Shown: one piece after another, positions 366 through 55,715 of the stretch
Numbering within the stretch: position 1 is the first letter of the stretch
Layout: each line of letters begins with the position of its first letter
NCBI GenBank assembly: GCA_030525085.1
Contig: JAUNFK010000002.1
Span: forward strand, 123-64,122
DNA from: a bacterium
GTDB lineage: Bacteria > Bacillota_I > Bacilli_A > RF39 > UBA660
Direction: 5' to 3'
Length of the DNA: 64,000 nt
Position numbers and translations under genes: made by a program
Notes under the pieces: model-generated
Told to the model about the DNA's origin: nothing
The model's database searches: none
Seen by the model: only the letters and a program-made list of their open reading frames with translations

Positions 366-1313
366 TTATTTTGTATATTTATAAGCAAATACATCACAGT
401 ATAGTAACAATAATAATTTGTTTGTTTTTATTATTCTTGATATCTTGTTAAGTTTAAATACGTAATCGCATTTTTTCCAATTTTTATCTAAATCATTTAA
501 CATTTTAAATGCTTCATTTATAAATTTTTTTCTTTGACTATGTTCTTTAATGTATCTTTGCTGTGCACAATAATCTAGTAGTATCATAGTAATTAAATTT
601 GTTAAAGCCTTTTTATACTTTTTGTCATCAAGTTCTTTTATAATGATTTTACATATTTCTAAAATATCAAATATTCTTTTGTCACGAGTCGTTGTCTCAC
701 TGTTTTCGTGAATAACATAATATGTAAGAAAGTCATTTATTTTTCCAATTTTATTTGCTTTTTTAACTGCTTTAACAACAAATGGAGCATCCTCATATTT
801 AAGATTTTCTTCAAAATAAATATCGTTATTTTTCAATAATTCAAGTGAATATAATTTATTACATGGCCCTAAGTTGATATTGTTAATTAAACTTGGATTA
901 TCTTTTAATGACGTATCTTCAAAATCTTTAAATTTTATTCCATAGAGATTTCCTCTATCCTCAAAGAAATTACAAATTACTAAATCACAATTATCAGTAC
1001 TTGCTTTTTTGTACATGTATTCACAAAAATGTTCATTTAAATAATCATCAGAATCTACAAAAGCAATATATTCTCCAGTTGCTTCTTTAATTCCTCTATT
1101 TCTTGTTTTACCAATGCCTTCATTCTTCTTCGAAATATATTTAATTCTTTTATCCTTATATTCTTTAATAACTTTTTCTGATTCATCCGTAGATCCATCA
1201 TTTATTAAAATAATTTCGATGTCCTTTAGAGATTGATTTACTAACGAATCTATGCATTTATTTAAATACTTGCTTGAATTATAAATCGGTACTACTAAAC
1301 TTACTTTTGCCAT
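366..1313 (-). CDS. family 2 glycosyltransferase
   Basis: N-terminal VSLVVPIYNSSKYLNKCIDSLVNQS...INDGSTDES and a downstream DSDD motif, both typical of GT-A fold GT2 enzymes. It is the last gene of the minus-strand polysaccharide locus. Confidence 0.8.
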   Translation of the reverse strand: MAKVSLVVPIYNSSKYLNKCIDSLVNQSLKDIEIILINDGSTDESEKVIKEYKDKRIKYISKKNEGIGKTRNRGIKEATGEYIAFVDSDDYLNEHFCEYMYKKASTDNCDLVICNFFEDRGNLYGIKFKDFEDTSLKDNPSLINNINLGPCNKLYSLELLKNNDIYFEENLKYEDAPFVVKAVKKANKIGKINDFLTYYVIHENSETTTRDKRIFDILEICKIIIKELDDKKYKKALTNLITMILLDYCAQQRYIKEHSQRKKFINEAFKMLNDLDKNWKKCDYVFKLNKISRIIKTNKLLLLLYCDVFAYKYTK

Positions 1314-1315
1314 TA

Positions 1316-2239
1316 TTACCTCACTAAATAGTTATAAAATAGATAAGAATTTGTTTTAATTATTAAACTTCTTACTTTTGATTTTAAACCATTTTCTATT
1401 GGATGTTTATAACAATTCTTCTTTTTTAAAATTTTATTATATTTTTTGTAATCTCTATATTTTAAAGTTGTGGAATAGTATATTAAAGAATTATCTAAAA
1501 ATCTTAAAATTGGTTCAATATTATCGATATTTTTGATTTGCTCTTTTTCATAATCAGATTGTTTCAACATATCGTCCATTTTTTTTATTTTTTTTGTGTA
1601 ATCAGTATTGTTCATTAAACTATTATTTCTTTGGACGTAGTTATAACCTATGTAAGAAATTGATTTTACAGTTTTTGCTTTTACAATTACAAGTGGAGTT
1701 AATCCATAGTCTTCTGCGATACAATTTTCCATGTATTTAAACTTATTTTTTATAAAATAATCTCTTTTGTAGACATAGGCCCAAGCATTTTCAATATAAT
1801 GATATCTTATTATTTTATTAAAAGCTTCTGTTCCGTTCGTTGAATCAAATCCAATTTCATTATGATCTATTTTTTGGTCATTGATAATATCTCTTACCTG
1901 AAATCTTAAAATATCTGGTTTATCGTTTAAAGCTTTATTAATGGTTTCTAAAAAGTCATTTTCTAAATAATCATCCGAATCCAGTAGAACTATATAATCT
2001 CCTGTTGCTTTTTGAATACCTATATTCCTTGCCTTTGCTAATCCTGTATGTTCTTCGTATATTTTGACCCAACCATACTTTTTTATATATTTATCTGCAA
2101 TCTTTTCACTACCATCATCGCATTTATCTATAACGGTAATTACTTCAAAATTTTTATATGTTTGATTAATTAAAGATTCTAAGCATTCTTTCAAGTATGA
2201 ACCCACGTTGTAAATAGGAACAATTATGCTAAATTTCAT
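1316..2239 (-). CDS. family 2 glycosyltransferase
   Basis: FSIIVPIYNVGSYLKECLESLINQTY...DKCDDGSEKIA...LLDSDDYL. Start moved to the ATG at 2237-2239 (MKFSII), which is preceded by AAAGGAG. The ORF-track start at 2272 has no RBS. Confidence 0.8.
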   Translation of the reverse strand: MKFSIIVPIYNVGSYLKECLESLINQTYKNFEVITVIDKCDDGSEKIADKYIKKYGWVKIYEEHTGLAKARNIGIQKATGDYIVLLDSDDYLENDFLETINKALNDKPDILRFQVRDIINDQKIDHNEIGFDSTNGTEAFNKIIRYHYIENAWAYVYKRDYFIKNKFKYMENCIAEDYGLTPLVIVKAKTVKSISYIGYNYVQRNNSLMNNTDYTKKIKKMDDMLKQSDYEKEQIKNIDNIEPILRFLDNSLIYYSTTLKYRDYKKYNKILKKKNCYKHPIENGLKSKVRSLIIKTNSYLFYNYLVR

Positions 2240-3290
2240 GTTTACTCCTTTTTGATTGAAAAAAATTAACAAGATAATAGATAAGTGCGCCGCTGATAAG
2301 ATTAATTATTAAATATATAATTGTGATATATGGCTGTCTAATATTATCAAACCATAAAATTATTATATTACTGCACGTAGATTGCATTATATAAAATTCA
2401 AAACTTATTTTTCCAAAATATGTACTTAATTTATTTGAAAATAATTTATCAATTATTCCTTCTTTACTGAACATCATAATGATTAATAGTGCTGTTGTTG
2501 GTAAAATTAACACATTAAGCCTGCTAGCCTCTCTAAAAATTAGTAATCTTATAAATATAACAAAAAGGATTAATTCTATAATGTTGAAAAGTATATTATT
2601 CATATTTTTCACTTTGTTGTTGTATGACTTATAAATATAATATGAAACTATACCTAAAGATATACCGGCTAAGCCTCTAAGAAATGCAGAAGAAAGAAAG
2701 CCTGTTATAAAGTAATTTGGACTCATATTGTAATCTTTAACTATAAAGAAAGAATATATAGCTACTGACAAAATTCCAAATATTGCAGGATAATATTTAT
2801 TTTCACTTTTTCTTAAAATATAAATAATAAGTGGAATATTTAATAATAATGCTGAAACGTACCAAGCTGGGCCATTTATATAATTAAAATTTGATATTCC
2901 GCTACCTTGGAGCATTAATAACTCTGCTATAAAATTAGATGCGTGATTTGAATCATTCATCCAACTAATTATATTTAAGTTATACCATTTTAATGAGTAC
3001 ACTATTATTAGACTTATTAATGCTATAAAATATGCTGGATACAGTTTTTTTAATTTGTTTTCCAATATTGGTAGCGTATCTTTTCTATTCTTTTCAAAAT
3101 AAGATTTTGCAATTAAAAATCCTGATAGTATAAAGAAGAATTCAACTGCTATATATCCCGTCTTAAATACACCGTTTTTTGTTATAGGAAAGTATAACTC
3201 AAAGTGAAATAGTGCAATGACAATTGTTGCAATACCCCTTAAGCCATTAATCCCGTATGAAAAATTTTTGCTATTGTTCTTTGCTTTCAT
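2229..3290 (-). CDS. acyltransferase family 3 membrane O-acyltransferase
   Basis: NGLRGIATIVIALFHF motif near the N-terminus and about 10 predicted TM segments. Lies inside the GT cluster. Confidence 0.7.
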   Translation of the reverse strand: MKAKNNSKNFSYGINGLRGIATIVIALFHFELYFPITKNGVFKTGYIAVEFFFILSGFLIAKSYFEKNRKDTLPILENKLKKLYPAYFIALISLIIVYSLKWYNLNIISWMNDSNHASNFIAELLMLQGSGISNFNYINGPAWYVSALLLNIPLIIYILRKSENKYYPAIFGILSVAIYSFFIVKDYNMSPNYFITGFLSSAFLRGLAGISLGIVSYYIYKSYNNKVKNMNNILFNIIELILFVIFIRLLIFREASRLNVLILPTTALLIIMMFSKEGIIDKLFSNKLSTYFGKISFEFYIMQSTCSNIIILWFDNIRQPYITIIYLIINLISGALIYYLVNFFQSKRSKHEI

Positions 3291-6200
3291 ATACTATACT
3301 CTCATAAATATCTTTGGCGATTCTTTCTCCGGAATGTCCATCATGCAAAGTTACGCATTTTTCAAATTCTTTATTTCTATTACTTCGGTTGATATCTTTG
3401 GATTGCTCTATATCTTTCAAGAAGTTTTCTATGTCGCTTAACTCATAGCCTTTTTGATATGAATCTAAAAGTTCATTAAATTCCTCTATGTATCTTTCTG
3501 TATTCGTTTTACTTTCTAAGAATAAAATGGGTTTATCTAATGCAGCGAACTCTATTGCTAATGAACTTCTATCACAAATGAATGCATCAGCAGCAAGTAC
3601 AGGTTCTCGATAATCTTCCTCTTTAAACACAAAAATATTATCTGTATTTTGTAATTTTTTTAGCAATTTTAATGACTCTTTATTTTTCGTATTGTCATAC
3701 ATCAATGGATGAAGCATTACGATAAAATAAATATTTTCGTACTTATCAGCTTTATCTAGTATTTCAGTGTAAATACTCAAATCTGGAGTTACTTGTTTGC
3801 CATTAAAATATTTTGGAAAATGAATTTTTATTAAAACAATTTTTTTATTCTTTGCTAGTTTTCTAAAATCATAATTTGTTGTAAATGTTTTATTCATGAG
3901 ACCATCAAATTTAGGATGGCCAAGTGCTTTTACATCATTTATTGTGTGTTTTGAGTATATACAATAATATTTTTGTGTGACTTCAGATATTGTATAAATT
4001 CTCCACATGTTATTTATAAATTGAGAACAAAATTCTAATTTCAAAGATTCTTCTGTTCCACTAAATTCTATTCCATATGGAATATAAATTAATCTGATTC
4101 CCATTTTCTTAAGTTCAGTTGAAGAGAATTCTTTTTCTCTGTGCCATTCATCATATGGTGTTTGGATAATTGCCACATGAGGAGAAAATTCTTGCAGTTT
4201 ATCAATTGTAAGTGTTTCGTATTCAATTTTATTATTTTCAAGGAATTTCTTTGCACCAGCCATTTGTGCTGGTTCTTTGTATTCTTGCTCTATTAAAAAG
4301 AATTTTACGTTAAAGTTTGAATCTTCAATAAGCGCCTTATATACACTTTCTAATGATGGCCAAAATGATGCAATTTGGAATAATATTGCAATATTAATTT
4401 TGCCGCTATTATAAGAATTATATATTGATTGACTTCTGGTCATGAATGTTTGCTCATTTGATATATTTTTTAGTGCTTCTTTAAGTTCTGAATAATTTGT
4501 TTTTAATTCATTTATTTCATTATTTAAATAATTTGTTTTTTCTTCTATTTTATTGTTAACTCTGTACATAAATCTTGAATAAAATGGATTAATAACTGGC
4601 TTTAAAAGTTTTTTTATAAATCTTTTCATTTTGCTTTGACCTGATTCAGATTTGTACTCTTCTAAATCGTTATAATTATCTTTACCATTTATCCAATCTA
4701 TTCTCTTTTTTAAAGATAATTCTAATGATTCTTGATTGTAAATCTTTGCAGTTTTATTTTTCTCTAAAATATTTTCAAATAATTTTTCTGCTTCTTTTTT
4801 TAATTCTGGAATTTCGTTATACAGGAAATCCCATCCAACTAACAATCTCTCATCATATGTTCCTCGTTTTATTCCGAGATTTTCCAAATTCTTTGATATA
4901 ATTGATATTTCACTGTCAATTACTTTTTGGTGTTTAGCTTGGGTGATATTATTTCCATGAATTCTATATTCACCGAGAACTTCTGGAATACATGCTATTT
5001 TCTCTGTTTTTAACATTCTGTTCCATAAATCGAAGTCTTCCATTGCCATTTCAGGATTGTAAAAGTAATTGTTCTTTATCATATTATCTCTTTTGAACAT
5101 TATAGTAGAATGGCATACGTCACATTTAAATAATAAAGCCGCTGCTAAATCGTCACTACTACATGCTGATTTGTGGATATAAGTACCAAAATCTCCGAAA
5201 TGTCGTTGCCATGTGCTGACCAATGTTATATCTGGATTTTCTAATAAGTATTTTCTTTCTTTTTCTAATCTATCTGGCATGGATAAGTCATCTGAATCCA
5301 TTCTTGCTATAAATTTAGTCTTTGCTATTTTTATTCCTTCATTTAGAGTTTTTGCTAATCCTAATTTTTCCTTGTTTCTTATAACTTTGATTCTATTATC
5401 GTGAAATAAGCTTAAATATTCTTCAGTATTATCGTTGCTATCATACTCAACCATAATATATAATAAAAAGTACTTATAAGTTTGGTCTAGTAGTGTTAAA
5501 ACTGAATCTATTATATAGTTTTCGCTGTTATAAACTGGCATAAGGATTGTTATATCAGCTTTATCTAAATCAATGTTATTATTAATACGTAGTGATTCTC
5601 TATTAAAAATTGATTTGTCTATAAAAAAGTCTATTGCTGAGTTCTTTTGAGAGTTTGGAATGCTCCATCTTAATTCCTGCCAACGTTTTTTTAGAGTTTT
5701 AAACATTTTGTTTATGTCATACCCATGAATACTTGCACTATATAATATTTTTTTTAAAAGTACATCCAGTTTCGTAATGGCATTATATAAATCTTTGTCC
5801 GCTATATTACGCGTAGATATATGGCAGTCGAGTAAATTTATTTCTTCTTCTGAGAAATTAAGATTTAAATAATTCATAAAACAGTTTTTCATGATTTCAC
5901 TGTATATTTTGATTCCAATGTTATTATTCCTGTTTGTAGCGTTGGTTGGATACATTCTGTATTTGAATAAACTTTTATCATTTATATTTGCGATATTTGT
6001 AACTCCAACTACTCTTGAAAAAAAGTCGTAATCTTCTGTTGCTTTATAATCTTTATTATAGTAAATATTGTATTTATCTATTATTTCTCTACGAAACATA
6101 ATGCTAGGATGGACGCATGGTGTATAGAAGAAGATGTTACTTTTAATTTGTCCTGGGTCTGTTTCTATTTCCCAATAAATTTCTTCTGTTCCAATAAACT

Positions 6201-6564
6201 CTGGTACAATTCCACACAAACCTATTTCTGGGTTATTATCTAAATAATCCATTTGTTTTTTTAATCTATCTTTTCCAGATATATCGTCAGAATCCATTCT
6301 AGCAATATATTCGCCACTTGATGCTCTCAAACCGATATTAAGAGATTCAGAAATTCCTTCTCTCTTTTCATTTTGAATAAGTTTTATTCTTTTATCTCTG
6401 TCTAAGAATGATTTTATTATGTCTAATGACTCTTTATTTGAACCATATTCATTAACTATTATTAATTCCCAGTTACTGTATGATTGATTGATAATACTTT
6501 CTATTGATTCCCTTATATATTCTTCGCCATTATATACTGGCATTACTATAGATACTTTTTTCAT
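3271..6564 (-). CDS. trimodular glycosyltransferase: GT2 + GT2 + TagB/TagF-like CDP-glycerol glycerophosphotransferase domain
   Basis: Two separate GT2 signatures: VSIVMPVYNGEEYIRESIESIINQSY...MDSDD and ITILMPVYNSENYIIDSVLTLLDQTY...MDSDD. A coiled-coil linker (NEINELKTNYSELKEALKN) follows. The C-terminal roughly 400 aa carry GHPKFDG and ICDRSSLAIEFAALDKPILFLE, as in Glyphos_transf (TagF) enzymes. Confidence 0.65.
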   Translation of the reverse strand: MKKVSIVMPVYNGEEYIRESIESIINQSYSNWELIIVNEYGSNKESLDIIKSFLDRDKRIKLIQNEKREGISESLNIGLRASSGEYIARMDSDDISGKDRLKKQMDYLDNNPEIGLCGIVPEFIGTEEIYWEIETDPGQIKSNIFFYTPCVHPSIMFRREIIDKYNIYYNKDYKATEDYDFFSRVVGVTNIANINDKSLFKYRMYPTNATNRNNNIGIKIYSEIMKNCFMNYLNLNFSEEEINLLDCHISTRNIADKDLYNAITKLDVLLKKILYSASIHGYDINKMFKTLKKRWQELRWSIPNSQKNSAIDFFIDKSIFNRESLRINNNIDLDKADITILMPVYNSENYIIDSVLTLLDQTYKYFLLYIMVEYDSNDNTEEYLSLFHDNRIKVIRNKEKLGLAKTLNEGIKIAKTKFIARMDSDDLSMPDRLEKERKYLLENPDITLVSTWQRHFGDFGTYIHKSACSSDDLAAALLFKCDVCHSTIMFKRDNMIKNNYFYNPEMAMEDFDLWNRMLKTEKIACIPEVLGEYRIHGNNITQAKHQKVIDSEISIISKNLENLGIKRGTYDERLLVGWDFLYNEIPELKKEAEKLFENILEKNKTAKIYNQESLELSLKKRIDWINGKDNYNDLEEYKSESGQSKMKRFIKKLLKPVINPFYSRFMYRVNNKIEEKTNYLNNEINELKTNYSELKEALKNISNEQTFMTRSQSIYNSYNSGKINIAILFQIASFWPSLESVYKALIEDSNFNVKFFLIEQEYKEPAQMAGAKKFLENNKIEYETLTIDKLQEFSPHVAIIQTPYDEWHREKEFSSTELKKMGIRLIYIPYGIEFSGTEESLKLEFCSQFINNMWRIYTISEVTQKYYCIYSKHTINDVKALGHPKFDGLMNKTFTTNYDFRKLAKNKKIVLIKIHFPKYFNGKQVTPDLSIYTEILDKADKYENIYFIVMLHPLMYDNTKNKESLKLLKKLQNTDNIFVFKEEDYREPVLAADAFICDRSSLAIEFAALDKPILFLESKTNTERYIEEFNELLDSYQKGYELSDIENFLKDIEQSKDINRSNRNKEFEKCVTLHDGHSGERIAKDIYESIVYESKEQ

Positions 6565-6582
6565 ATAATCCTCCTACGATGT

Positions 6583-7635
6583 TTAAATTGTTTTATTTAG
6601 ATAAGGTATTTTTTTTATTATTAATACAACTATCAGTGTTAAAACAAAGTATAATCCGCTTCCTAATAGCATATTAATTAAGTTACCATTATTTGCTGTA
6701 AAGTGTAACCCAAATATATTTATATCTGGTAGAAGATACAAGAATATCATATGGATAAAATATATGCCACCTGTATTAGTAGCTACTAATGATATAAATT
6801 TTTTTATTTTTTGTGGTATTTTTTCTAAGTATTTATTTATAGATATCGCAAAAATAAACAGTGATGTGTCTAACATGAAATTTGGCAATAGCGTACAATC
6901 GAAATAAGGTTTTGTATTACTTATGCCCTGACTATTTATTATAATCTTTGCTAATACTGCAATTAATATTAATCCTAATATGGTTGTTCCGGTACTAATT
7001 AAAGATACTTTTGAATTTTGAAATGCTTTTTTGTTATCGTATAAGTATTTTCCTAAAACAAATAATCCTAATTCTGGAAAAAAGATTGCGAATTTTGGTA
7101 TTGATATAATATCCCAGAATTTTAATTGTAGAGTTCCTAAAAGTACTGGAAGAACTAAAATTAACATTAATAAACCTTTTTTCTCTCGTTCATTAAGACT
7201 CAAATAAAGTCTAGAGATAAATGGTGTAAGAATATATAAACCAATTAGCGGATACATATACCATAAGTGGTCAACTTGTTCTTTAAATAGTGCGGTAAAC
7301 ATTTTCTTTATTATATTAATATCTTGATTCATTAAAAATTTGAATATTAATAGATAAATAAGTGTCCAAAATAAGGTTTGTAAAATTATTTTTAGTACTT
7401 TTTTATAAAATGTTTTGTAATTTGTATTTTTTTTATTTATTAAGAAACATCCCGATAACATATAAAACAATGGCACTGCACAACTCGTTAAACTCGAAAT
7501 ACCTAGTGTCATTATAAACATTTTAGTTCCGTATGATTCGACATAATAATTACATGTAGCATGTATAATTACTACAAAGATTATTGCGAAAAATCTTAAT
7601 GTGTCCGCGAATATTTCTCTTTGTTGTTTTTCCAT
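6583..7635 (-). CDS. acyltransferase family 3 membrane protein
   Basis: FADTLRFFAIIFVVIIHA motif, polytopic. Start placed at the internal ATG (MEKQQREIF), which has a weak GGTGA RBS. The ORF-track start at 7692 has no RBS. Confidence 0.6.
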   Translation of the reverse strand: MEKQQREIFADTLRFFAIIFVVIIHATCNYYVESYGTKMFIMTLGISSLTSCAVPLFYMLSGCFLINKKNTNYKTFYKKVLKIILQTLFWTLIYLLIFKFLMNQDINIIKKMFTALFKEQVDHLWYMYPLIGLYILTPFISRLYLSLNEREKKGLLMLILVLPVLLGTLQLKFWDIISIPKFAIFFPELGLFVLGKYLYDNKKAFQNSKVSLISTGTTILGLILIAVLAKIIINSQGISNTKPYFDCTLLPNFMLDTSLFIFAISINKYLEKIPQKIKKFISLVATNTGGIYFIHMIFLYLLPDINIFGLHFTANNGNLINMLLGSGLYFVLTLIVVLIIKKIPYLNKTI

Positions 7636-7717
7636 AATATCACCGTTTATATCATAACATACTTTTATAGGAAATTCATTTGTTCTTAACAAAAAAAGTG
7701 GTATTATCCACTTTTTA

Positions 7718-8323
7718 TTAATGAGTATCTGCTATATTGTTACCTGTAATTTCATTTTTTGTTAAATAATTATAGAAGATTTTCATCATCATATGGTCAA
7801 ATGTCATATGTAAGTCTTCATCTATTTGCATATCTAATTCGTCAACATGCATTTTGTAATCAGCTAATTCTTTTAATTTTCCACCTGTGTATCCAGTAAT
7901 TCCAACTACTTTTGCTCCGCACTCTTTTGCATATTCTGCAGCATTAACAACATTTTTTGAGTTTCCTGAACCACTAATTCCAATAAATAAATCATTTGGA
8001 GTAATTTTATTTCTTAATTGGAATCTAAACACTTCTTCATAACCAATATCATTTGCTACAGCCATGATTGTAGCTACGTTATCATTTAAACAATAAAAAT
8101 TAAATTTCTTATCTACATATTCACTTATGCCTTTATTAAAATCATTTTGAAAATGACTTGCAGTACTTGCTGAACCACCATTTCCACAAATATAGATTGT
8201 TCCTTTTCTATTGTAAGCATCTAAAATTGCATTCATTGATTCATTTATTTCATCTAAATTGAATCTTTTAATTGCTGCCATTTCCCTTTCATAATATTCT
8301 TGAATTGCTTTTTTAAAATCCAT
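7718..8323 (-). CDS. gmhA: D-sedoheptulose-7-phosphate isomerase (SIS domain)
   Basis: ICGNGGSASTASHFQNDF and ISGSGNS SIS motifs. Start placed at MDFKKAIQEYY with a GAAGGAAAAG RBS, which removes the 29-nt overlap with the upstream gene. Confidence 0.8.
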   Translation of the reverse strand: MDFKKAIQEYYEREMAAIKRFNLDEINESMNAILDAYNRKGTIYICGNGGSASTASHFQNDFNKGISEYVDKKFNFYCLNDNVATIMAVANDIGYEEVFRFQLRNKITPNDLFIGISGSGNSKNVVNAAEYAKECGAKVVGITGYTGGKLKELADYKMHVDELDMQIDEDLHMTFDHMMMKIFYNYLTKNEITGNNIADTH

Positions 8324-8342
8324 TTTCTTTTCCTTCTTTCTA

Positions 8343-9662
8343 TTAAAGCTTTTTTGAAGCTTTTTTACCAATAATTTTATTTATTGCATCATTTAAATTT
8401 TCAGCAACTATTGTAGGTGATACTTCATATTTTCCGTCTTCACCCTTTTGGCCTGTTTTTAATAATACACTTTGCATTCCTGCATTTTCAGCCATTTTGA
8501 TGTCTAGTGTAGAATCACCAATCATTATAGAACTTGATAAATCGATGTTGTGCTCTCTTGCTGCTTTTTCTAACATTCCTGTTTTTGGTTTTCTACAATC
8601 GCATTCTATTTTTAATTCAGGAATTTCACCTTCAAATCCTTTATCTGGATGGTGTGGGCAATAGTAAATGTCATCTATATATGCACCATCTAATCCTAAA
8701 AGAGTCTCCATTTTTTTGTGGATTTCTCCTAGTTCTTCATCAGTTACTTCGCCTCTAGCGATTACTGGTTGGTTTGTTACTACTATTGCAAGATAACCAC
8801 TGTTATTAATATTTTTAATAGCTTCTGAAACTCCCGGTATCAATTCAAATTCTTCTTTTTTTCTTAAGAAACCAACATATTCATTTATTGTTCCGTCTCT
8901 ATCTAAAAATATTGCTTTTTGTTTATTTGCTAAGTTTTTAGCATCGCAAATTCCACTTGAATAGTCTTCTTGTACTCTTCGATATCTTTCAGGAGTTCCC
9001 ATATCTTTAGCATATTCACTTGATTTATAAGAAACAACTTTGCCTTCGCTAATTAATGGGACTATTATATCTTTTTCATAATTGTATTTTTTTAATTCTG
9101 GCAAATATTTGAAGATAGTTGGTGAGAATATCATAATTCCAGCGTTTACTAAATTCTTATAATTATATGTTGTTCTATCATTTGATTTATAATCGAATGA
9201 CTTTACTACTCCGCCTTCTTCAACAACTAAGTCACTATCAAATGGATGACCATTAGGGTGAGTTAGAAGCGTTACGTCTGCATTGTTTGCAACATGATAT
9301 TGTTCCATTTTTTCAAAATCAATATCTATAAAGACGTCTGCTAACAAAAATACAAAATTTTCTTTTATTTTATCTTTAAGAAAATATAGTGAGCCGGCTG
9401 TTCCCAGTGGCTTTTGTGGGTCTTCTTCAACATAGGATATATTTAATCCAAACTGCTTTCCATCTCCAAAATAGTCTTTGATGACATTTCCTAGATGGCC
9501 AATGATAACTGTTATGTCAGTGATTCCATTTTTCTTTAAATTCATCATTTGATGATATAAAATTGGATATCCTGATATTTCTAGCATTGGCTTAGGAATT
9601 ACGTCGCCTGTTATTTCGGAAATTCTCGTTCCTTTTCCTCCCGCCTGAATAACTGCTTTCAT
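8343..9662 (-). CDS. bifunctional D-glycero-D-manno-heptose-1-phosphate nucleotidyltransferase / D,D-heptose-1,7-bisphosphate phosphatase (HddC-GmhB fusion)
   Basis: N-terminal MKAVIQAGGKGTRISEITGDVIPKPML sugar-nucleotidyltransferase fold. C-terminal HAD phosphatase with AIFLDRDGTIN...VVTNQPVIARG...CDCRKPKTGM, the GmhB-type signature. Confidence 0.75.
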   Translation of the reverse strand: MKAVIQAGGKGTRISEITGDVIPKPMLEISGYPILYHQMMNLKKNGITDITVIIGHLGNVIKDYFGDGKQFGLNISYVEEDPQKPLGTAGSLYFLKDKIKENFVFLLADVFIDIDFEKMEQYHVANNADVTLLTHPNGHPFDSDLVVEEGGVVKSFDYKSNDRTTYNYKNLVNAGIMIFSPTIFKYLPELKKYNYEKDIIVPLISEGKVVSYKSSEYAKDMGTPERYRRVQEDYSSGICDAKNLANKQKAIFLDRDGTINEYVGFLRKKEEFELIPGVSEAIKNINNSGYLAIVVTNQPVIARGEVTDEELGEIHKKMETLLGLDGAYIDDIYYCPHHPDKGFEGEIPELKIECDCRKPKTGMLEKAAREHNIDLSSSIMIGDSTLDIKMAENAGMQSVLLKTGQKGEDGKYEVSPTIVAENLNDAINKIIGKKASKKL

Positions 9663-9663
9663 A

Positions 9664-10611
9664 TTAATAATGTTCCTTTATATATTTTGCAGTTTCTCTT
9701 ACTGATTCATCAGAAGTATGATGAGCTTGCCATCCAGCATTATGAATTTTTGTTAAATCATATTGAAATTTTGGAACATCACCTTTCCAACCGACATTAC
9801 CGCCTGTATATTTATACTCAACATTTTCATATCCTAATTCTTCACAAACAATATCTGCTATTGTTGTAACGCTAGTTGCTGTTTCTACTCCAGCATTATA
9901 AATTTCTACACCTTTTTTCATTTCAATATCTAGAGTGAATTTAACGATGGCATCAACCAAGTCTAGTACGTATAAATATGGTTTAGTTTGAGTACCGTCA
10001 CCTAAAATTTCTAGTTCATTTGGATTCTTTTGTAATTTTTTTACAAAGTCGAAGATAACTCCATGAGTTAAATTTGGACCGATAACGTTTGGAAATCTAA
10101 AAATTACTGTATTAAAATCATTCATAAAGCTATAAGAAGAGATAAATCCTTCTGATGCATATTTAGCTCCTCCATAATATGAGATAGGATGTAAATCACC
10201 AGTTACTTCTGTTAATAATTCTTTTTTATCTCCATAGATTGCAGAAGTTGATGAGAAAAATAAATTTTTGATGTTTTCTCTTCTCATATATTCTAATACT
10301 GTGTAAGTTGTCATAAATGTATCGTTATAATCAACACTTGGATTTTTTCCACCTTTTTGAATATCTGAGTTTGCAGCTAAATGATATACAATATCAATAT
10401 TTTCATTTTTTAGTTGTTCACAAAACTTTTCTGTTTCTTCAATGTTAATGTTATAAAATTTATAGTTTTCATTGTCTTTGAAGCAATCTACATTTTCTTG
10501 TTTGCCTAATGTGAAGTTATCAACTACTACAACTTCAAGGCCTCTTTCTAATAAATTTCTTACTAAATGAGTTCCGATGAATCCGGCTCCTCCTGTTACT
10601 AATGCTTTCAT
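9664..10611 (-). CDS. NAD-dependent epimerase/dehydratase (SDR), probably acting on the nucleotide-heptose
   Basis: MKALVTGGAGFIGTHLVRNLLERG Rossmann motif and the YxxxK region (YYGGAKYASE). Embedded between hddA and hddC-gmhB. Confidence 0.65.
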   Translation of the reverse strand: MKALVTGGAGFIGTHLVRNLLERGLEVVVVDNFTLGKQENVDCFKDNENYKFYNINIEETEKFCEQLKNENIDIVYHLAANSDIQKGGKNPSVDYNDTFMTTYTVLEYMRRENIKNLFFSSTSAIYGDKKELLTEVTGDLHPISYYGGAKYASEGFISSYSFMNDFNTVIFRFPNVIGPNLTHGVIFDFVKKLQKNPNELEILGDGTQTKPYLYVLDLVDAIVKFTLDIEMKKGVEIYNAGVETATSVTTIADIVCEELGYENVEYKYTGGNVGWKGDVPKFQYDLTKIHNAGWQAHHTSDESVRETAKYIKEHY

Positions 10612-10621
10612 TTTTTACCTC

Positions 10622-11599
10622 CTAATTTACAAATATTACGGTTGTACCTTGATGGTCAAATTTAAATTCCATCTCTGGTAAATCGCTCATTTCTTTTCTG
10701 AATTTTTCTTGTTTTTCTTCTGGAACATAGAATAGGAAGAATCCGCTTCCGCCAGCTCCTAAAAGTTTGCCGCCTGTTGCTCCAGCTTTGATACCTCTTT
10801 CGTACCACTCATCAAATTGAGGGTTGCTAATTCCAGAAGCTAATGTTCTTTTAATTTTCCAGTTTTCATCTAGGATTTTACCTACCGCATCGATATTGTT
10901 ATGTTCTAACTCGTATTTTAAGTCGTAGGTCATTTCCATAATTCTTTTTTGGCCTTCTTCTTTATCTTTGGCACTTACGATATTTTTAGATTGTTCTTCT
11001 AAAATAGCGGAAGCCTTATGTTCGCCACCTACATATAGCATTATTAAATTTTTTTCTAATTGTTTAAATGCTTCATGGTCCATTAAGACTGGTTCTACAT
11101 CAACTGAACCATCTTTGTTAAATTTATAAAAATTTAATCCGCCGAAAGCAGCAGCATATTGGTCTTGCTTTCCGTTTGTAGTATGAACAATATTATTTTC
11201 CATATTGCATGCTGATGCTGCAACGTCTGGCTTAGAGATATATTCTCTTTTATAACATTTTAAGTTTTTAATTAAACCTACAGTAAAAGAACTAGATGAA
11301 CCAAGACCTGTTCCTGATGGTACATCGGCAATTGAAGTTATTTCTAATCCCTCTAGGCCTTCTTGTTTTAAACATTCCCTAAATATGTTGTGTTCAATAT
11401 CATCTACATTTTGAACGGTTTCTGTTTTAGAGTATTTTAAAACTGTTGTTTTTTTATCGAATGATGGGTGGCTTGTTATGTACATATACTTGTTTATTGT
11501 TGTACTAAGCACACATCCTCCGTGTTTTTCATAGAATGACTTAATGTCACTACCACCACCACATAGACTTACTCTAAATGGAGTTCTTGTTATAATCAT
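10622..11599 (-). CDS. hddA: D-glycero-D-manno-heptose 7-phosphate kinase (GHMP kinase)
   Basis: MIITRTPFRVSLCGGGSD N-terminus and the GHMP ATP motif PSGTGLGSSSS. Start set to the internal ATG, which is preceded by AAAGGAAGG. Confidence 0.75.
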   Translation of the reverse strand: MIITRTPFRVSLCGGGSDIKSFYEKHGGCVLSTTINKYMYITSHPSFDKKTTVLKYSKTETVQNVDDIEHNIFRECLKQEGLEGLEITSIADVPSGTGLGSSSSFTVGLIKNLKCYKREYISKPDVAASACNMENNIVHTTNGKQDQYAAAFGGLNFYKFNKDGSVDVEPVLMDHEAFKQLEKNLIMLYVGGEHKASAILEEQSKNIVSAKDKEEGQKRIMEMTYDLKYELEHNNIDAVGKILDENWKIKRTLASGISNPQFDEWYERGIKAGATGGKLLGAGGSGFFLFYVPEEKQEKFRKEMSDLPEMEFKFDHQGTTVIFVN

Positions 11600-11636
11600 T
11601 GTAACACCTTCCTTTAATTTATAATTCAATTATAAC

Positions 11637-12371
11637 CTATTTCATTAATTTTTGATAATATTCGTCGCAAATTTCTTTTGCATCTCCCATTTTAACAATT
11701 TTACCGTGATCTAACCAGATTACTTTACTGCACAATTCTTTAATACTTGCTATAGAATGGGAAACATAAAGCACGGTAGTCCCGCCTTTTATCATTGACA
11801 TCATTTTATTTTTACTTTTTTCTTGAAATTTTATATCGCCGACTGATAATATTTCGTCTACAATTAGAACCTCTGGGTCAACAATTGTAGAGATTGAGAA
11901 AGCTAATTTTGCTACCATACCTGATGAAAAGTTTTTTATCGGAACATCAAGAAAATCTTTTAATTCTGAAAACTCAACTATTTCATCAAATTTATCTTCT
12001 AGAAATTCTTTCGAATAGCCTAGAATTGCGCCATTAAGATATATATTTTCTCTTGCTGTAAGTTCTTGGTCGAATCCAGCCCCAAGTTCAATCATGGGTG
12101 AAATCTTGCCGTTAACTTCTACAGTACCAGTTGTCGGTTTGTAAACACCACTTACTACTTTTAAAAGTGTACTTTTACCAGCACCGTTGGCTCCGATAAT
12201 TCCGACTACGTCGCCTTTATTAATTCTAAAATCAATATCTTTTAATGCCCAAAAGTATTCTTTCTTTTTTTTCTTTTTAGGAGTAAAAAGATTTATGAAT
12301 ATCATTTTTAGTGAATTATCTTTTTCGACCCCTAAGTTAAATTTCATTGATACATTATTAAGTATTATCAT
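11637..12371 (-). CDS. polysaccharide/teichoic-acid export ABC transporter ATP-binding protein (TagH/Wzt-like)
   Basis: Walker A GIIGANGAGKST, signature FSSGM (LSGGQ-like), Walker B LIVDEILSVGD. Start has an AGGAGG RBS. Confidence 0.8.
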   Translation of the reverse strand: MIILNNVSMKFNLGVEKDNSLKMIFINLFTPKKKKKKEYFWALKDIDFRINKGDVVGIIGANGAGKSTLLKVVSGVYKPTTGTVEVNGKISPMIELGAGFDQELTARENIYLNGAILGYSKEFLEDKFDEIVEFSELKDFLDVPIKNFSSGMVAKLAFSISTIVDPEVLIVDEILSVGDIKFQEKSKNKMMSMIKGGTTVLYVSHSIASIKELCSKVIWLDHGKIVKMGDAKEICDEYYQKLMK

Positions 12372-12380
12372 AAGAGCCTC

Positions 12381-13187
12381 CTAAATATAATAGACAAATT
12401 TGTCTTGCTTTTTTCTAAATATAAACATACCAACAATCATAGTTATAAATCCACTTAAAAATAATGCTACAACATTTGTAAGTGAAGGTCCATTTCCAAA
12501 TAAAACTATTTCTCTAATGGTATTAATATATAAATATAATGGATTCAATTTAAAGATGCTTTGTAAGTATGTAGGTAAAATTGTAATAGAGTAAAAAATT
12601 GGTGTGAAGTAATTTAAAATCGTAAGTAGGATCCCCCAAATATAAATGACATCTCTTAGAAATACTGTTACTGTTGATAAAATATAACCTATCCCCACAG
12701 TAAACATTAGAGTGCATAAAAATACGTATGGTAAGTATAAATACCAAATGTTGATTGTACACTTTGTTCCAGCTGCAGCGTCTCCTGATAATAAAATAAT
12801 TAAGAAGAATGGAATTAAAGTAAATAAGAAGTTAATTCCCGCAAATAGACATTTTGCTAATGGGAAGATGTACTTTGGCATATATACTTTATTTATTAGT
12901 GAGAAATTGCCAACTATTGATGTTAAACAGTTATTTGTAGCTTCACTAAAGTAATTGAAAATTAGTAAACCACTCATTAAGTATACTAGATAGTTGACTC
13001 CTTCCATGTTAAATTTAAACATGTTAGAGAATATCAAGGCCATAACACTCATCATTAAAAGTGGGTATAAGATACTCCATAGAACTCCTAGTACACTTCT
13101 TTTATATTTTACTTTAAAATCTCTCATTATTAATTGATTTAATAAGAATTTATATTTTTTTAAACTATATAATATTTTCTTTATCAC
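12381..13187 (-). CDS. ABC-2 type polysaccharide/teichoic-acid export permease (TagG/Wzm-like)
   Basis: Six TM segments and the RDFKVKYKRSVLGVLW ABC-2 signature. GTG start 3 nt after the upstream stop, which suggests translational coupling. Confidence 0.7.
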   Translation of the reverse strand: MIKKILYSLKKYKFLLNQLIMRDFKVKYKRSVLGVLWSILYPLLMMSVMALIFSNMFKFNMEGVNYLVYLMSGLLIFNYFSEATNNCLTSIVGNFSLINKVYMPKYIFPLAKCLFAGINFLFTLIPFFLIILLSGDAAAGTKCTINIWYLYLPYVFLCTLMFTVGIGYILSTVTVFLRDVIYIWGILLTILNYFTPIFYSITILPTYLQSIFKLNPLYLYINTIREIVLFGNGPSLTNVVALFLSGFITMIVGMFIFRKKQDKFVYYI

Positions 13188-13190
13188 TTA

Positions 13191-13925
13191 TTAGTCACCG
13201 CTTTCATTATAGCAATTATTTTTGAATATTACTAGATTTACAAATTTTATTAGTGTAAATATCTGTTTGAATCTCTTAGGTTCTTTAATCATTCTATATA
13301 GCCACTCCATATGTGTTTTCTGATAAAATGATGGAGCTCTATTTATTTTGCCACTATAAACGTCTATTGTTCCACCTATTGGCATTATTATTTTTATATC
13401 TTTAAATTTTTGCTTATTTTTGACTATAAAATTTTCCTGTTTTGGTGAGCCTAACGCTACAAATAAGAAGTCTGGTTTTGCTTTAAGTATTTTCATGAGT
13501 GCTTCATCTTCTGGTACGTATCCGTTAATATAGCCACATATGTTAATGTTTTTATATTTTTTTTCTATGTTTTTAATTGCTAAATCAAGATTTTCTTTTT
13601 TTGCACCATAAATAAATATTTTGCATTTTGTTTTTAGTGATAACTTGCACAGTTCATCAAACATTTCAATTCCTGCTATTCTTTCCTTGATTTGCCCATG
13701 TTTTAATTTTGATGCCAGTACTGTCCCAAATCCATCTGGAATGTTAAAATTTTCTTTATTTATTTCGCTTACCATCTCTTTGTCACGATAAAAATTACAA
13801 ATAATAAGTGGGTTTGCATTAAAAAGTATATTTTGTTTGTTGTTTTTAATATCTTTTTCAGCTGCTTTTATAATTTCGTCTTTAGTTTTGGTTGTTACTT
13901 TAATTCCTAATATCTTTTCATTCAT
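13191..13925 (-). CDS. WecB/TagA/CpsF family (GT26) glycosyltransferase
   Basis: ILGIKVTTKTKDEIIKAAEKDI...FNANPLII N-terminus and C-terminal WLYRMIKEPKR, typical of the TagA/WecG family. Confidence 0.7.
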   Translation of the reverse strand: MNEKILGIKVTTKTKDEIIKAAEKDIKNNKQNILFNANPLIICNFYRDKEMVSEINKENFNIPDGFGTVLASKLKHGQIKERIAGIEMFDELCKLSLKTKCKIFIYGAKKENLDLAIKNIEKKYKNINICGYINGYVPEDEALMKILKAKPDFLFVALGSPKQENFIVKNKQKFKDIKIIMPIGGTIDVYSGKINRAPSFYQKTHMEWLYRMIKEPKRFKQIFTLIKFVNLVIFKNNCYNESGD

Positions 13926-13965
13926 ATTTCCTCTTAAAAAAATAAATAGTATATTACTATACTAT

Positions 13966-14514
13966 CTATTGTGCACTAATGCCGATTGTTCCTTTAAAGG
14001 TTCCGTTATCATTTTTATCTTCTGTATAGTAAATATTTAATGTGTATGTATGTACTGCGTTTTTCCCTTGTGTAAATGAGCCAGGACCCATAGTTATATT
14101 TGTTGTCCCATTAAGTTCTTTTGCGGGTTTAATATTTTCAATAACAGTTCCTTTTTCAGAATAGTTATTGCTTACAATATTGTATTTTAATGAGCCATTT
14201 TTAAAGGTGTTTTCATTTATTACTAATGTAACATAATATGATATGTCTTCTGTGCTAGTGTTTGTTCCTGTTAATGTAAATGTTTTACTAATTATTGGCG
14301 TATTTTTTGCTTCTGGGTTAGAAAACTCGATTGTATTTGAACCACTAAAAGCAATATCGATATCGCCATTTTGTAATTTTAAATTTTCTGGTTTTGCGTT
14401 ACTACTGTCATTTACGCTTAAATAAGAGTAACTTCTACCTATTGCTACTACAACTAGTATTGCTACTAATAGGACATTAATTATTAATCGTTTATTTTTT
14501 TTCATAGCTATCAC
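13966..14514 (-). CDS. hypothetical secreted or membrane-anchored protein (signal anchor, Thr/Asn-rich)
   Basis: N-terminal MKKNKRLIINVLLVAILVVVAIG signal anchor. First gene of the locus transcription unit. Confidence 0.35.
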   Translation of the reverse strand: MIAMKKNKRLIINVLLVAILVVVAIGRSYSYLSVNDSSNAKPENLKLQNGDIDIAFSGSNTIEFSNPEAKNTPIISKTFTLTGTNTSTEDISYYVTLVINENTFKNGSLKYNIVSNNYSEKGTVIENIKPAKELNGTTNITMGPGSFTQGKNAVHTYTLNIYYTEDKNDNGTFKGTIGISAQ

Positions 14515-14664
14515 CTAATTATAATTATAGAGGAAATATTTAATTTTGGCTAGTGGTAGTTGATTATTTTTAAGGTTTTTACAAATTTTATATTTTTTAT
14601 TTTTTTAATAATTTCACATAATAATCATAAATTATTGATATTTATTTGGTGAGGAGATGATTTT

Positions 14665-14874
14665 ATGAAAGAAAAAATTATTGCGCTTTTTGTTGGCCTG
14701 TTAGTTGGTGCAATTATTTCAACTGGTTCAATATACTTTTATACTGTTGCCACAAATAATAGTAACAATCAAGGAATGCAAATGCCTAGTGATAATCAAG
14801 GTGGCGGAATGAATCAAAATGGTGGTACTCCACCAGAGATGCCTAATGGCAATGAGAACAGCACTCAAAGTTAG
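14665..14874 (+). CDS. small membrane protein with Gly/Asn/Gln-rich tail
   Basis: One TM segment (IIALFVGLLVGAIISTG) followed by a low-complexity tail. GGAGATGA RBS. Sits 12 nt upstream of the next gene. Confidence 0.35.
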   Translation: MKEKIIALFVGLLVGAIISTGSIYFYTVATNNSNNQGMQMPSDNQGGGMNQNGGTPPEMPNGNENSTQS

Positions 14875-14885
14875 GAAGGTGAATA

Positions 14886-16469: not shown

Positions 16470-16509
16470 GTTTACTAAATATGTATGGTGATAATAATAA
16501 TAAATAAAA

Positions 16510-16533
16510 ATTACGCTGTGGCGTAATTTTTTT
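16510..16533 (+). terminator. intrinsic terminator
   Basis: Hairpin ATTACGCTGTGGCGTAAT followed by TTTTTTT, downstream of the 14886-16469 CDS. Confidence 0.6.
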
Positions 16534-16609
16534 GCTTTTTGAGGTAAAATATTTTATTAAAATTTAAATATTTAAAACTTAATTTTTTGTAAAGTAATAT
16601 TAAATATTT

Positions 16610-16659: not shown

Positions 16660-16830
16660 GAGGATAATGGTATAATGAGCGCCAGACCCTATATGGGTGA
16701 CGAGGTCAGTGGAGTATCGAAATGTTCGGCGGGTGCCACTGCGGAGGGAAATCGTTAGATTATTTATAAAAAATAAAATCAAAATTATAACAACATAAGT
16801 AATCTTTCCAGCATTTTTTAGTGTGCATTA
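16660..16830 (+). ncRNA. glmS ribozyme: glmS ribozyme (GlcN6P-responsive self-cleaving leader)
   Basis: AGCGCCAGACCC...GGGTGACGAGGTCAGTGGAGTATCGAAATGTTCGGCGGGTGCCACTGCGGAGGGAAATCG matches the conserved core (AGCGCCAGA...GACGAGG...GGAG-UAUCGAA-UUUCGGCGG-UGCC). The predicted cleavage site is between A16678 and G16679. It lies directly upstream of glmS. Confidence 0.8.
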
Positions 16831-16844
16831 AAGGAGAGATGATT

Positions 16845-18644: not shown

Positions 18645-18649
18645 AAAAA

Positions 18650-18674
18650 ATACGCAAATGCGTATTTTTTTTAT
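18650..18674. terminator. bidirectional intrinsic terminator shared by glmS (+) and the convergent minus-strand operon
   Basis: AAAAAAAATACGCAAATGCGTATTTTTTTT. Stem ATACGCA/TGCGTAT with A-run and T-run flanks. Confidence 0.7.
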
Positions 18675-19345
18675 TCGGTCTTATTTTTAATTTTATAAAT
18701 GCAAGAATCTTCTTTAGTATTTAAACTTAGAATTATTTCATTATTTAATTCACTTTTAATTGTACTATTAAATAAGGTATAAGTGTATTCATATGGACTT
18801 TCATATGTGTAATACTCTTTAAGGTGTCTTGCTTTAGATATTGGTAATGATGCTTCAAGTGGAACTATACCTGTAGTATGAATAATAAATTCTAAGGTAA
18901 TGATTTCATCTTTTGGTGGTTCTTGCACCACTATATAGTGCCCGTGTTTTATTTCGGTACATTCGTCATAAAAATCCACATTTGTTGGAAATAAGATTTG
19001 TAATAGATAAACAAATAATTTACTTTTATCAGGATGTATATTTAGCATCTCATAATCTGCACTTAAATACTTAGAAATATTGGAGTTTACATGCACTATC
19101 ATATTACGAGGATGAAATGAAACTTTAGGTTCTATATTTTCTTTTTCATAATGAAGCAATGTTCTTTCTATTTCTTCGTAGTCTTTTGTTGTGTATTTTT
19201 TTATACTTTCTAATTCTATGTATCTTCCCTTTTTTGAAGGAAAAGAAAAATAAATGGAATTATCTTTACCAAAAACAATATTTAGAAGTTTATATTTTTT
19301 TCCATCTTTTTCAAATAGTATCGGTGTTACCAAACTTTTACTCAT
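18671..19345 (-). CDS. hypothetical protein
   Basis: Overlaps tagO by 4 nt (ATGA) and is therefore likely co-transcribed with it. No recognisable motifs. Confidence 0.35.
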   Translation of the reverse strand: MSKSLVTPILFEKDGKKYKLLNIVFGKDNSIYFSFPSKKGRYIELESIKKYTTKDYEEIERTLLHYEKENIEPKVSFHPRNMIVHVNSNISKYLSADYEMLNIHPDKSKLFVYLLQILFPTNVDFYDECTEIKHGHYIVVQEPPKDEIITLEFIIHTTGIVPLEASLPISKARHLKEYYTYESPYEYTYTLFNSTIKSELNNEIILSLNTKEDSCIYKIKNKTE

Positions 19346-53560: not shown

Positions 53561-53569
53561 TTTTCCTCC

Positions 53570-54667: not shown

Positions 54668-54685
54668 GTTATCATCTCTTTCTAA

Positions 54686-55687: not shown

Positions 55688-55715
55688 GGTATCACCTACA
55701 ACCAAGTATAACAAA

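Follow-up and report, generated by a model that had tools for sequence, protein, structure and literature searches.

A predicted O-antigen-like, heptose-containing surface polysaccharide locus in an uncultured gut lineage of Bacilli

The wall teichoic acid (WTA) pathway is built from TagO, TagA, TagB/F, TagD, TagGH and LCP proteins. The ABC-transporter-dependent O-antigen systems of E. coli O9a (WbdA/WbdD) and Klebsiella O12 (WbbB) rely on polymerase-terminator enzymes: after initiation by WecA, a multidomain glycosyltransferase polymerase builds the chain and carries, behind a helical linker, a domain which modifies or caps it; Wzm/Wzt exports the product and a WaaL-like ligase completes the set. 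In streptococci, lactococci and enterococci, the rhamnose-rich wall polysaccharides (GAC, RGP, CWPS and EPA) are initiated by a TagO/WecA homologue, grow in the cytoplasm and leave the cell through a short Wzm/Wzt-type ABC exporter. Their nucleotide-sugar genes lie in the locus, which has a conserved backbone part and another that varies between strains, the chains are O-acetylated and bear anionic groups (GroP or teichoic-like), the LCP genes are found elsewhere and the polymers functionally replace WTA (PMC9574508, PMC4931226, PMC7188991); in L. lactis, for instance, the lcp genes are away from the cwps cluster (PMC9574508). We analysed a 64,000-nucleotide stretch of DNA (hereafter the window; assembly GCA_030525085.1, contig JAUNFK010000002.1, positions 123 to 64,122) from an uncultured RF39/RFN20/ML615J-28-like gut lineage and describe a minus-strand gene cluster which resembles all three systems. 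We estimate at about 0.7 the probability that the product of this locus is a cell-surface heteropolysaccharide which contains heptose, is O-acetylated, varies between strains and is made through an ABC-transporter-dependent route of the O-antigen, WTA or rhamnose cell-wall polysaccharide (Rha-CWPS) type. By analogy with the streptococcal rhamnose wall polysaccharides, the best reading of the predicted product is an O-antigen-like heptose polysaccharide carried on undecaprenyl pyrophosphate (Und-PP) linked to N-acetylglucosamine (GlcNAc).

The unit consists of 13 open reading frames (ORFs), all on the minus strand, running from 14514 down to 366 as a single compact block with spacings of -44 to +40 nt, in a window of about 28% G+C. 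The order of the core genes is repeated in 16 loci of GTDB genomes and in eight contigs from human-gut metagenomes (the latter numbered L030-L037), and for this reason the operon arrangement is not a matter of chance. The conserved core comprises tagO, tagA, tagG, tagH, hddA, a short-chain dehydrogenase/reductase (SDR) gene, hddC/gmhB, gmhA, two glycosyltransferase genes (GT2_b and GT2_a) and a ligase-like fusion gene. As the locus holds mostly glycosyltransferases and a heptose pathway, the predicted polymer would be a glycan and not a polyol-phosphate chain. The initial annotation had listed gmhA, hddA and hddC-gmhB between 366 and 14514 with TagO/TagA/TagGH-type machinery (TagO at 19342-20427), four GT2 domains, one TagF-family domain and two acyltransferase-3 (AT3) proteins, and Pfam and NCBIfam matches recovered every one of them at its place and on the minus strand. 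What it had left out were the SDR (9664-10611), a secreted protein (13966-14514), the left-edge gene (296-1) and the strain variability of the segment 2165-7733. A scan for promoters and terminators was uninformative in this AT-rich DNA, with 112 promoter-like sites for 120 expected.

The heart of the locus is a four-gene heptose cassette:

7718-8371, minus strand: GmhA-type sedoheptulose-7-phosphate isomerase (SIS), likely start at the ATG at 8323 (201 aa)
8343-9662, minus strand: HddC-GmhB fusion (NTP_transferase + HAD-IIIA), the N-terminal half a nucleotidyl(guanylyl)transferase and the C-terminal half a heptose-1,7-bisphosphate 7-phosphatase
9664-10611, minus strand: GalE-type extended SDR of the GDP-sugar 4-epimerase subgroup, between hddA and hddC/gmhB
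10622-11629, minus strand: HddA, a GHMP-family D-glycero-D-manno-heptose 7-phosphate anomeric kinase, likely start at the ATG at 11599

In the predicted pathway GmhA would isomerise sedoheptulose-7-phosphate, HddA would form the alpha-1,7-bisphosphate and the GmhB half of the fusion would take off the 7-phosphate. GmhA keeps the SGSGNS phosphate loop and the catalytic His; its top 13 PDB matches are all phosphoheptose isomerases and its best NCBIfam match is TIGR00441 gmhA (117 bits, under the cutoff of 209). HddA presents the PF00288 and PF08544 domains, its top four PDB matches are all heptose-7-phosphate kinases (3k85 at 7e-44, WcbL 4usk, 4n3o) and its best NCBIfam match is NF049969 HddA (161 bits, under the cutoff of 600). 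In the fusion, the motifs GGKGTR, DRDGT and CPHHPD..CxCRKP (the Cys/His zinc site) are intact, and PDB matches include 2gmw (E. coli GmhB, 7e-33), 7d72 (8e-21) and 5xhw (1e-15). The GmhB half passes NF006506 (178.2 for a cutoff of 178); the transferase half scores 141 bits as a mannose-1-phosphate guanylyltransferase and 75.6 bits as HddC (cutoff 300), its PDB matches being mannose-1-phosphate guanylyltransferases and Yersinia HddC. The complete gmhA/hddA/hddC-gmhB pathway proposed in the initial annotation is upheld: for GmhA, HddA and GmhB the best family and PDB matches are all heptose-pathway proteins and none belongs to another sugar pathway. At the family level these precursor steps are supported, their chemistry being inferred, and the homologies support a complete route of the GHMP-kinase, GDP type. 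A kinase of GHMP type (HddA), instead of the ribokinase-type HldE of the ADP-heptose route, points to the alpha-anomer and a GDP-type route. GDP as the nucleotide is further suggested by the kinship of the transferase half to mannose-1-phosphate guanylyltransferases and HddC, and by the neighbouring SDR, which is closest to a GDP-preferring 4-epimerase with a guanine-stacking Trp.

The same HddC-GmhB fusion (43-48% identity) adjoins hddA and gmhA in marine Bacteroidota (Schleiferiaceae/Owenweeksia, L017-L029), where it is accompanied neither by the SDR nor by tagGH; such an occurrence suggests that the fusion is older or more mobile than the Bacilli locus. In the loci L007, L009 and L011, from rabbit-gut metagenome-assembled genomes (MAGs), the four-gene cassette occurs without adjacent tagGH and therefore looks like a separable module. 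One could then suppose that two unrelated pathways are simply neighbours, the heptose cassette feeding another product and TagO/TagA/TagGH making a heptose-free polymer. We find this very improbable: in about 20 contigs the cassette lies between the transporter genes and the glycosyltransferases in a tight same-strand unit, and no other consumer of nucleotide-activated heptose is encoded nearby.

The SDR is the most conserved protein of the locus, with 74-99% identity among the relatives, and in L001-L014 and L030-L037 it always sits inside the heptose cassette, between hddA and hddC/gmhB. An unrelated Eubacteriales MAG (L026) has a 40%-identical SDR beside hddC/gmhB-hddA-gmhA. The closest solved relative is PhGal4E_1 (PDB 8rdg), a Pyrococcus GDP-sugar 4-epimerase, which aligns from end to end with 43% identity (E 2.5e-74) and which prefers GDP and stacks a Trp on the guanine (PMC12171764). 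We took as reference features of PhGal4E_1 the S/T...YxxxK triad, N174, H182, the guanine-stacking Trp, and P80 and R83 of loop R. S/T122-124, Y146xxxK150, N175, H183 and the Trp of GWKGDV of the SDR match their counterparts. Other assignments were discarded: a 4,6-dehydratase, which would have opened a 6-deoxy-heptose route, did not fit since the SDR reads STSAIYG without the Asp-Glu pair; Cj1427 and Cj1428 were not among the PDB matches at E<1e-20; and comparison with PDB and NCBIfam showed no likeness to RmlB or RmlD. From its sequence we infer that the SDR is a one-enzyme GDP-heptose C4-epimerase giving a talo-configured heptose, which would interconvert GDP-heptose with its C4 epimer GDP-D-glycero-alpha-D-talo-heptose. 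Because the SDR is embedded in the cassette, the sugar put to use may be this C4 epimer (talo-type) and not plain manno-heptose. The polymer had been described as bearing D-glycero-D-manno-heptose; of this, the heptose pathway stands and the manno configuration is not supported, the GalE-type SDR having been overlooked. In the capsular GDP-heptose toolkit of C. jejuni, C4 is altered by a separate C4-dehydrogenase or 4,6-dehydratase, epimerases and C4-reductases, whereas a single GalE-type enzyme is predicted here, and a 6-deoxy talo-configured product is listed as unobserved (PMC10680097).

Initiation and export would be carried out by proteins encoded upstream in the unit and, for the first step, by a separate tagO gene:

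19342-20427, minus strand: TagO/WecA-type polyprenyl-phosphate GlcNAc-1-phosphate transferase, the initiating enzyme (PF00953, E 3e-39)
13966-14514, minus strand: small secreted or anchored protein, first gene of the unit (179-182 aa, N-terminal signal or anchor helix)
13191-13925, minus strand: TagA/WecG-family GT26 glycosyltransferase (PF03808, E 3.3e-52)
12381-13187, minus strand: Wzm/TagG-type ABC-2 permease (PF01061, E 5.7e-16)
11637-12371, minus strand: Wzt/TagH-type ABC exporter ATPase (PF00005), short (244 aa)

TagO/WecA, which scores 173 bits with TIGR02380 WecA and 80 bits with MraY, would load GlcNAc-1-phosphate onto undecaprenyl phosphate. In L005, L008 and L012 its gene directly adjoins the transporter genes, and in several relatives it stands beside tagG or tagA. 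TagA (155 bits with TIGR00696 for a cutoff of 69; 158 bits with TarA, under the cutoff of 350) would add a second sugar, of N-acetylmannosamine (ManNAc) type, to the Und-PP-GlcNAc linkage unit. A GlcNAc-ManNAc unit is supported by the presence of MnaA, the UDP-GlcNAc 2-epimerase, inside the orthologous loci L004 and L012, in the latter directly after gmhA. The short Wzm/Wzt (TagG/H) pair would finally export the finished lipid-linked polymer. Its ATPase scores 209 bits with the galactan Wzt model NF050108 and 188-200 bits with the TagH models, all under their cutoffs, and lacks a C-terminal glycan-binding domain. The small secreted protein matches no Pfam or NCBIfam family and is kept at the same position in L001, L014 and L030-L037. 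Between tagO and the heptose operon lies glmS (16821-18644), preceded by a glmS ribozyme at 16667-16813 on the plus strand (Rfam RF00234, 57 bits for a gathering threshold, GA, of 37).

By analogy, the closest working counterparts of this machinery are the rhamnose-rich wall polysaccharides, with which it would share the traits listed above. The locus works like these systems without being a member: the window contains no rml genes, its signature sugar is GDP-heptose with a 4-epimerase-type SDR instead of dTDP-rhamnose, TagA/GT26 (with MnaA in the relatives) is present as in WTA, the operon ends in an O-antigen-ligase-like/GT4 fusion, and the host is an uncultured gut bacterium. With the WTA pathway it shares homologues of TagO, TagA and TagG/H and a PF04464-family domain, but the window has no TagD, no standalone TagB or TagF and no LCP protein. 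The O9a and O12 systems are resembled in initiation, predicted polymerase design, export and the presence of a ligase-like domain. They differ in that the Wzt of the window has no C-terminal cap-binding domain, that the capping module is of the TagF family here and a pyruvyltransferase in sister strains, and that no lipid A-core acceptor is available since the host is a monoderm.

The remaining genes of the unit are two conserved glycosyltransferases and, between gmhA and GT2_b, a variable cassette:

366-1313, minus strand: GT2_a glycosyltransferase (PF00535, E 1.7e-38), 54-95% identity in relatives
1316-2272, minus strand: GT2_b glycosyltransferase, conserved (PF00535, E 1e-30), likely start at the ATG at 2239 (307 aa, as in relatives)
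2229-3290, minus strand: AT3_a, acyltransferase-3 membrane O-acyltransferase, strain-specific (PF01757, E 3.5e-21)
3271-6564, minus strand: 1097-aa GT2-GT2-TagF-like enzyme, strain-specific, in which two GT2 domains are followed by PF04464 at the C-terminus
6583-7692, minus strand: AT3_b, acyltransferase-3 membrane O-acyltransferase, strain-specific (PF01757, E 3.8e-29), likely start at 7635

The cassette between gmhA and GT2_b is swapped between strains in a serotype-like manner. Alignment with L001, a close relative with 95% protein identity and about 89-90% nucleotide identity, left three segments specific to the window: 2165-7733, 14602-16558 and 18644-19346. The first holds AT3, the 1097-aa enzyme and AT3, where L001 has an AT3 and a GT8-GT2 protein; L002 has two GT8-GT2 proteins between gmhA and GT2_b, and the eight human-gut contigs have in the same slot a radical-SAM gene and a 1057-aa GT2-GT2-pyruvyltransferase. 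The second segment, on the plus strand, contains a small ORF for a membrane protein (~14665-14874) whose tail is rich in Gly, Asn and Gln, and encodes a Cthe_2159-type surface protein of 527 aa, a carbohydrate-binding beta-helix that has a signal peptide and, at its C-terminus, a membrane anchor. The third, on the minus strand between glmS and tagO, encodes a 224-aa ORF without known domain and is absent from L014 as well.

In the 1097-aa enzyme, the first GT2 domain has its DxD near residue 90 and the second (residues ~335-560) near residue 422; a helical linker (~640-715) then leads to a TagB/TagF-family GT-B domain (~720-1097). PF04464 is matched on residues 853-1087 (52 bits for a cutoff of 22), and a confident model of the last 380 residues shows a GT-B fold. 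An exhaustive HMMER search recovered homologues over the full length, at 61% and 48% identity, together with numerous 1050-1200-aa proteins that resemble just one of its halves, which makes the enzyme a member of a modular family; an earlier impression that the C-terminal domain was near-unique (6 matches in a word-indexed search) proved to be a sensitivity artefact. The pyruvyltransferase of L030-L037 and the TagF-like domain share the C-terminal position after a similar linker, which suggests interchangeable modules adding anionic non-sugar substituents. We therefore regard the 1097-aa enzyme as a putative serotype-specific polymerase with a phospho-substituent capping or decorating module, the modifier being likened to WsfC of P. 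alvei (PMC2943079) or to the terminators of the O9a and O12 O-antigens, and favour this polymerase-plus-modifier design over a poly(glycerol phosphate) backbone. In the favoured design, drawn by analogy, the role of the C-terminal module would be to attach an anionic substituent other than a sugar, of phospho-polyol type here and a pyruvate ketal in sister strains. GT2_a, GT2_b and the strain-specific enzyme would extend the chain at the cytoplasmic face, the TagF-family domain would probably add a phospho-polyol-type cap or side group, and the two AT3 proteins would O-acetylate the polymer. O-acylation, also claimed in the initial annotation, agrees with the two AT3 genes, with the restriction that both are confined to the strain-specific cassette. 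In L004 the heptose cassette itself is interrupted by an AT3 gene (L004:9015-10013), which separates the SDR from hddC/gmhB.

Several observations weigh against the proposed function. None of GmhA, HddA, HddC, TagA (TarA), TagH and WecA reaches its NCBIfam equivalog cutoff, which leaves the exact enzyme specificities tentative, and no glycosyltransferase of the locus is assignable as a heptosyltransferase. GmhA has an Asp aligned to the expected catalytic Glu. The SDR differs from PhGal4E_1 at two of the four highlighted residues (P80 -> S82, R83 -> Q85) and could use another nucleotide sugar; P80 works through its backbone carbonyl (PMC12171764). The linker helix of the 1097-aa enzyme is predicted with low confidence (pLDDT 40-69). 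Its TagF-like domain has no sequence match to a solved TagF, and its fold matches generic GT-B proteins, UDP-GlcNAc 2-epimerases being the best and the TagF-like capsule multienzyme Bcs3 appearing at ranks 34 and 47. Pfam and NCBIfam scans of the 64-kb window found no mnaA and, among its real ORFs, no tagD or other cytidylyltransferase, which may be encoded elsewhere in the genome. The glycerol phosphate proposed as a possible part of the polymer in the initial annotation is not supported, as it relied on this divergent PF04464 domain, present in this strain's cassette only, in a window without tagD. Finally, the same scans found no LCP gene in the window or within 10 kb on either side of hddC in L030-L037.

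This last absence bears on the final transfer, the least certain step of the pathway, and on the gene that ends the operon at the left edge of the window:

296-1, minus strand: N-terminus (first 98 codons) of an O-antigen-ligase-like fusion protein, matching the N-terminus of L001:16745-19669 and continuing beyond the window

A plus-strand ORF of 93 aa (82-363) was rejected as a gene, being a shadow of this one. The full-length homologues in L001 and L030-L037 have 973 or 974 aa and join a PF13425 O-antigen-ligase-like domain to GT4 and PssD/Cps14F domains; a PssE/Cps14G gene and then a HAD-GtrA gene follow. In L004 (L004:15771-20033) the fusion ends in a TagA/GT26 domain and is followed by MnaA. 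The PF13425 domain could be a ligase, a Wzy-like polymerase or a side-chain transferase. Most likely, by analogy with WTA and the streptococcal rhamnose polysaccharides, an LCP ligase whose gene lies elsewhere would attach the polymer to peptidoglycan; as an alternative final step, the conserved fusion protein itself would transfer the polymer. Of the 'wall polymer' proposed in the initial annotation, the gene content is confirmed and the anchoring to peptidoglycan is not. Because no LCP gene is found nearby and the locus has no ligase-like domain other than the O-antigen-ligase-like one, protein O-glycosylation and a lipoglycan remain live rivals.

In Geobacillus and Paenibacillus, WsaB and WsfB have been put forward as enzymes that transfer the glycan through such a ligase domain, and to our knowledge the only chemically proven Gram-positive heptose glycan, that of Aneurinibacillus thermoaerophilus, is of the S-layer-glycan type. 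The locus could accordingly serve an S-layer-type protein O-glycosylation, in which a heptose glycan on Und-PP would be exported by Wzm/Wzt and moved en bloc to Ser, Thr or Tyr of a surface or S-layer protein by the ligase-like domain. The conservation of PF13425 at the operon end (in the window, L001, L002, L004, L008 and L030-L037) and its fusion to TagA in L004, which ties the ligase-like domain to the same lipid-linked intermediate, agree with such a scheme, as do the lack of a nearby LCP gene and the small conserved secreted protein at the operon head (13966-14514). Yet PF13425 domains may equally be Wzy-like polymerases or side-chain transferases, and this one has no sequence match to any solved protein; a homologue search gave only a 58-aa fragment. 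The S-layer glycan (slg) clusters offer a close parallel: they include a Gram-positive GmhA/HddA/GmhB/HddC route and pair nucleotide-sugar genes with export by Wzm/Wzt, glycosyltransferases of several domains, a membrane protein of O-antigen-ligase type and, in WsfC, even a domain resembling TagF (PMC2943079). They differ from our locus, in which HddC and GmhB form one protein, a GalE-type SDR lies within the cassette and initiation is of WecA/TagO type with TagA instead of the WbaP/WsaP type of the characterised clusters; moreover, no gene for an SLH-domain or S-layer protein was found among the window ORFs scanned. On balance we consider O-glycosylation unlikely.

The exported heptose polymer could also be moved onto a glycolipid rather than onto peptidoglycan, giving a membrane-anchored lipoglycan in line with the heptose glycolipids and lipoglycans of the related Acholeplasma lineage. 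Gram-negative WaaL-type ligases indeed use a lipid acceptor, Acholeplasma oculi possesses a GDP-heptose pathway, the pentaglycosyl diglyceride of A. modicum contains heptose (PMC4221730), and the host belongs among Bacilli lineages interleaved with the wall-less Mollicutes, for which a thin or reduced wall is predicted (PMC10868615). The window, on the other hand, carries an M23-LysM-G5 hydrolase, an Amidase_3 fragment and a spore-coat protein, so a wall is likely; TagO, TagA and MnaA are the classical murein-linkage-unit set, and no glycolipid synthase was identified in the locus. We therefore judge the lipoglycan improbable and retain a surface heteropolysaccharide, most likely bound for peptidoglycan.

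The host is best placed through its neighbours. L001 is titled 'uncultured Tenericutes bacterium UMGS1021' and is a human-gut MAG; other close genomes are titled 'uncultured Bacilli bacterium' and come from Hadza, rabbit and goat MAGs. No exact match to the HddA of the window occurs in the collection, of which the strain itself is not part. HddC-GmhB variants at 95-96% identity occur very frequently across metagenome assemblies, one of them being indexed in 491 collection blocks; the host clade is abundant in human-gut metagenomes and has no cultured member. Field et al. (2024) predicted for RF39, RFN20 and ML615J-28 mixed phenotypes (walled, possibly sporulating) and no standard WTA or lipoteichoic acid (LTA) pathways (PMC10868615), a predicted absence which leaves room for a heptose polymer. 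The sporulation marker found in the window is:

43412-43744, plus strand: GerQ spore coat homologue (PF09671, E 1.3e-32; TIGR02728 98.9 for a cutoff of 88.95)

It is the only clear one: three rounds of Pfam scans gave none, and GerQ came out of a scan of small ORFs. The term 'spore-former' used in the initial annotation is backed by this one marker, GerQ, which passes the NCBIfam equivalog cutoff; the nearest genomes being uncultured MAGs labelled Tenericutes or Bacilli, sporulation would be a predicted phenotype. Taken together, the glmS ribozyme, a T-box leader, the M23-LysM-G5 hydrolase, the Amidase_3 fragment and GerQ fit a walled, possibly sporulating Firmicute. The T-box leader (41496-41683, minus strand) lies upstream of a lysyl-tRNA synthetase with an extra C-terminal tRNA-binding domain, and the Amidase_3 fragment is a 104-aa ORF (57857-58171, minus strand) covering profile positions 73-173 of 174 only, either a truncated pseudogene or a mis-called start.

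Other features of the window were recorded along the way. On the minus strand, 51728-55714 holds an asparagine synthase (610 aa) and, about 1 kb away on the other side of YchF, a 'sugar-transfer associated ATP-grasp' protein (PF14397); an asparagine-synthase homologue, WsfA, also occurs in the S-layer glycan cluster of P. alvei. The region 56853-61953 encodes an Abi_2 abortive-infection-like protein, a 360-aa ORF without assigned function and a 698-aa large serine recombinase, and could mark the border of a mobile element or hold a SpoIVCA-like recombinase. Inside the PcrA/UvrD ORF, 30841-30937 (minus strand) matches the 'sRNA in helicase gene' family of C. difficile at a borderline score (65.4 for a GA of 65.2).

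Nothing in this locus is categorically new. What makes it interesting is the GDP-type 4-epimerase within the heptose cassette, the exchange of polymerase-modifier cassettes between strains, the fusion protein with its ligase-like domain and a prevalent, uncultured host. A bolder combination would unite them: the polymer would be the main anionic envelope polymer of a prevalent gut lineage devoid of classical WTA and LTA, its D-glycero-D-talo-heptose (a configuration unseen in the known GDP-heptose toolkit) would be made by a one-enzyme GalE-type 4-epimerase, and it would be finished not by LCP but by a WaaL-like ligase fused to early glycosyltransferases. As a whole this combination is unlikely. 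If true, it would amount to a genuine 'O-antigen' system in a monoderm, with serotypes set by interchangeable polymerase-terminator cassettes (TagF-like, pyruvyltransferase and GT8-GT2). Heptose metabolites are innate-immune signals in Gram-negatives. A single-enzyme route to C4-epimeric GDP-heptose, if true, would be new, would extend a heptose biochemistry dominated by Campylobacter and lipopolysaccharide and could offer a biocatalyst. For a lineage long treated as wall-less 'Tenericutes', the locus is a concrete candidate for the major surface polymer; it also predicts strain-level 'serotypes', which would be likely targets of phages and host antibodies.

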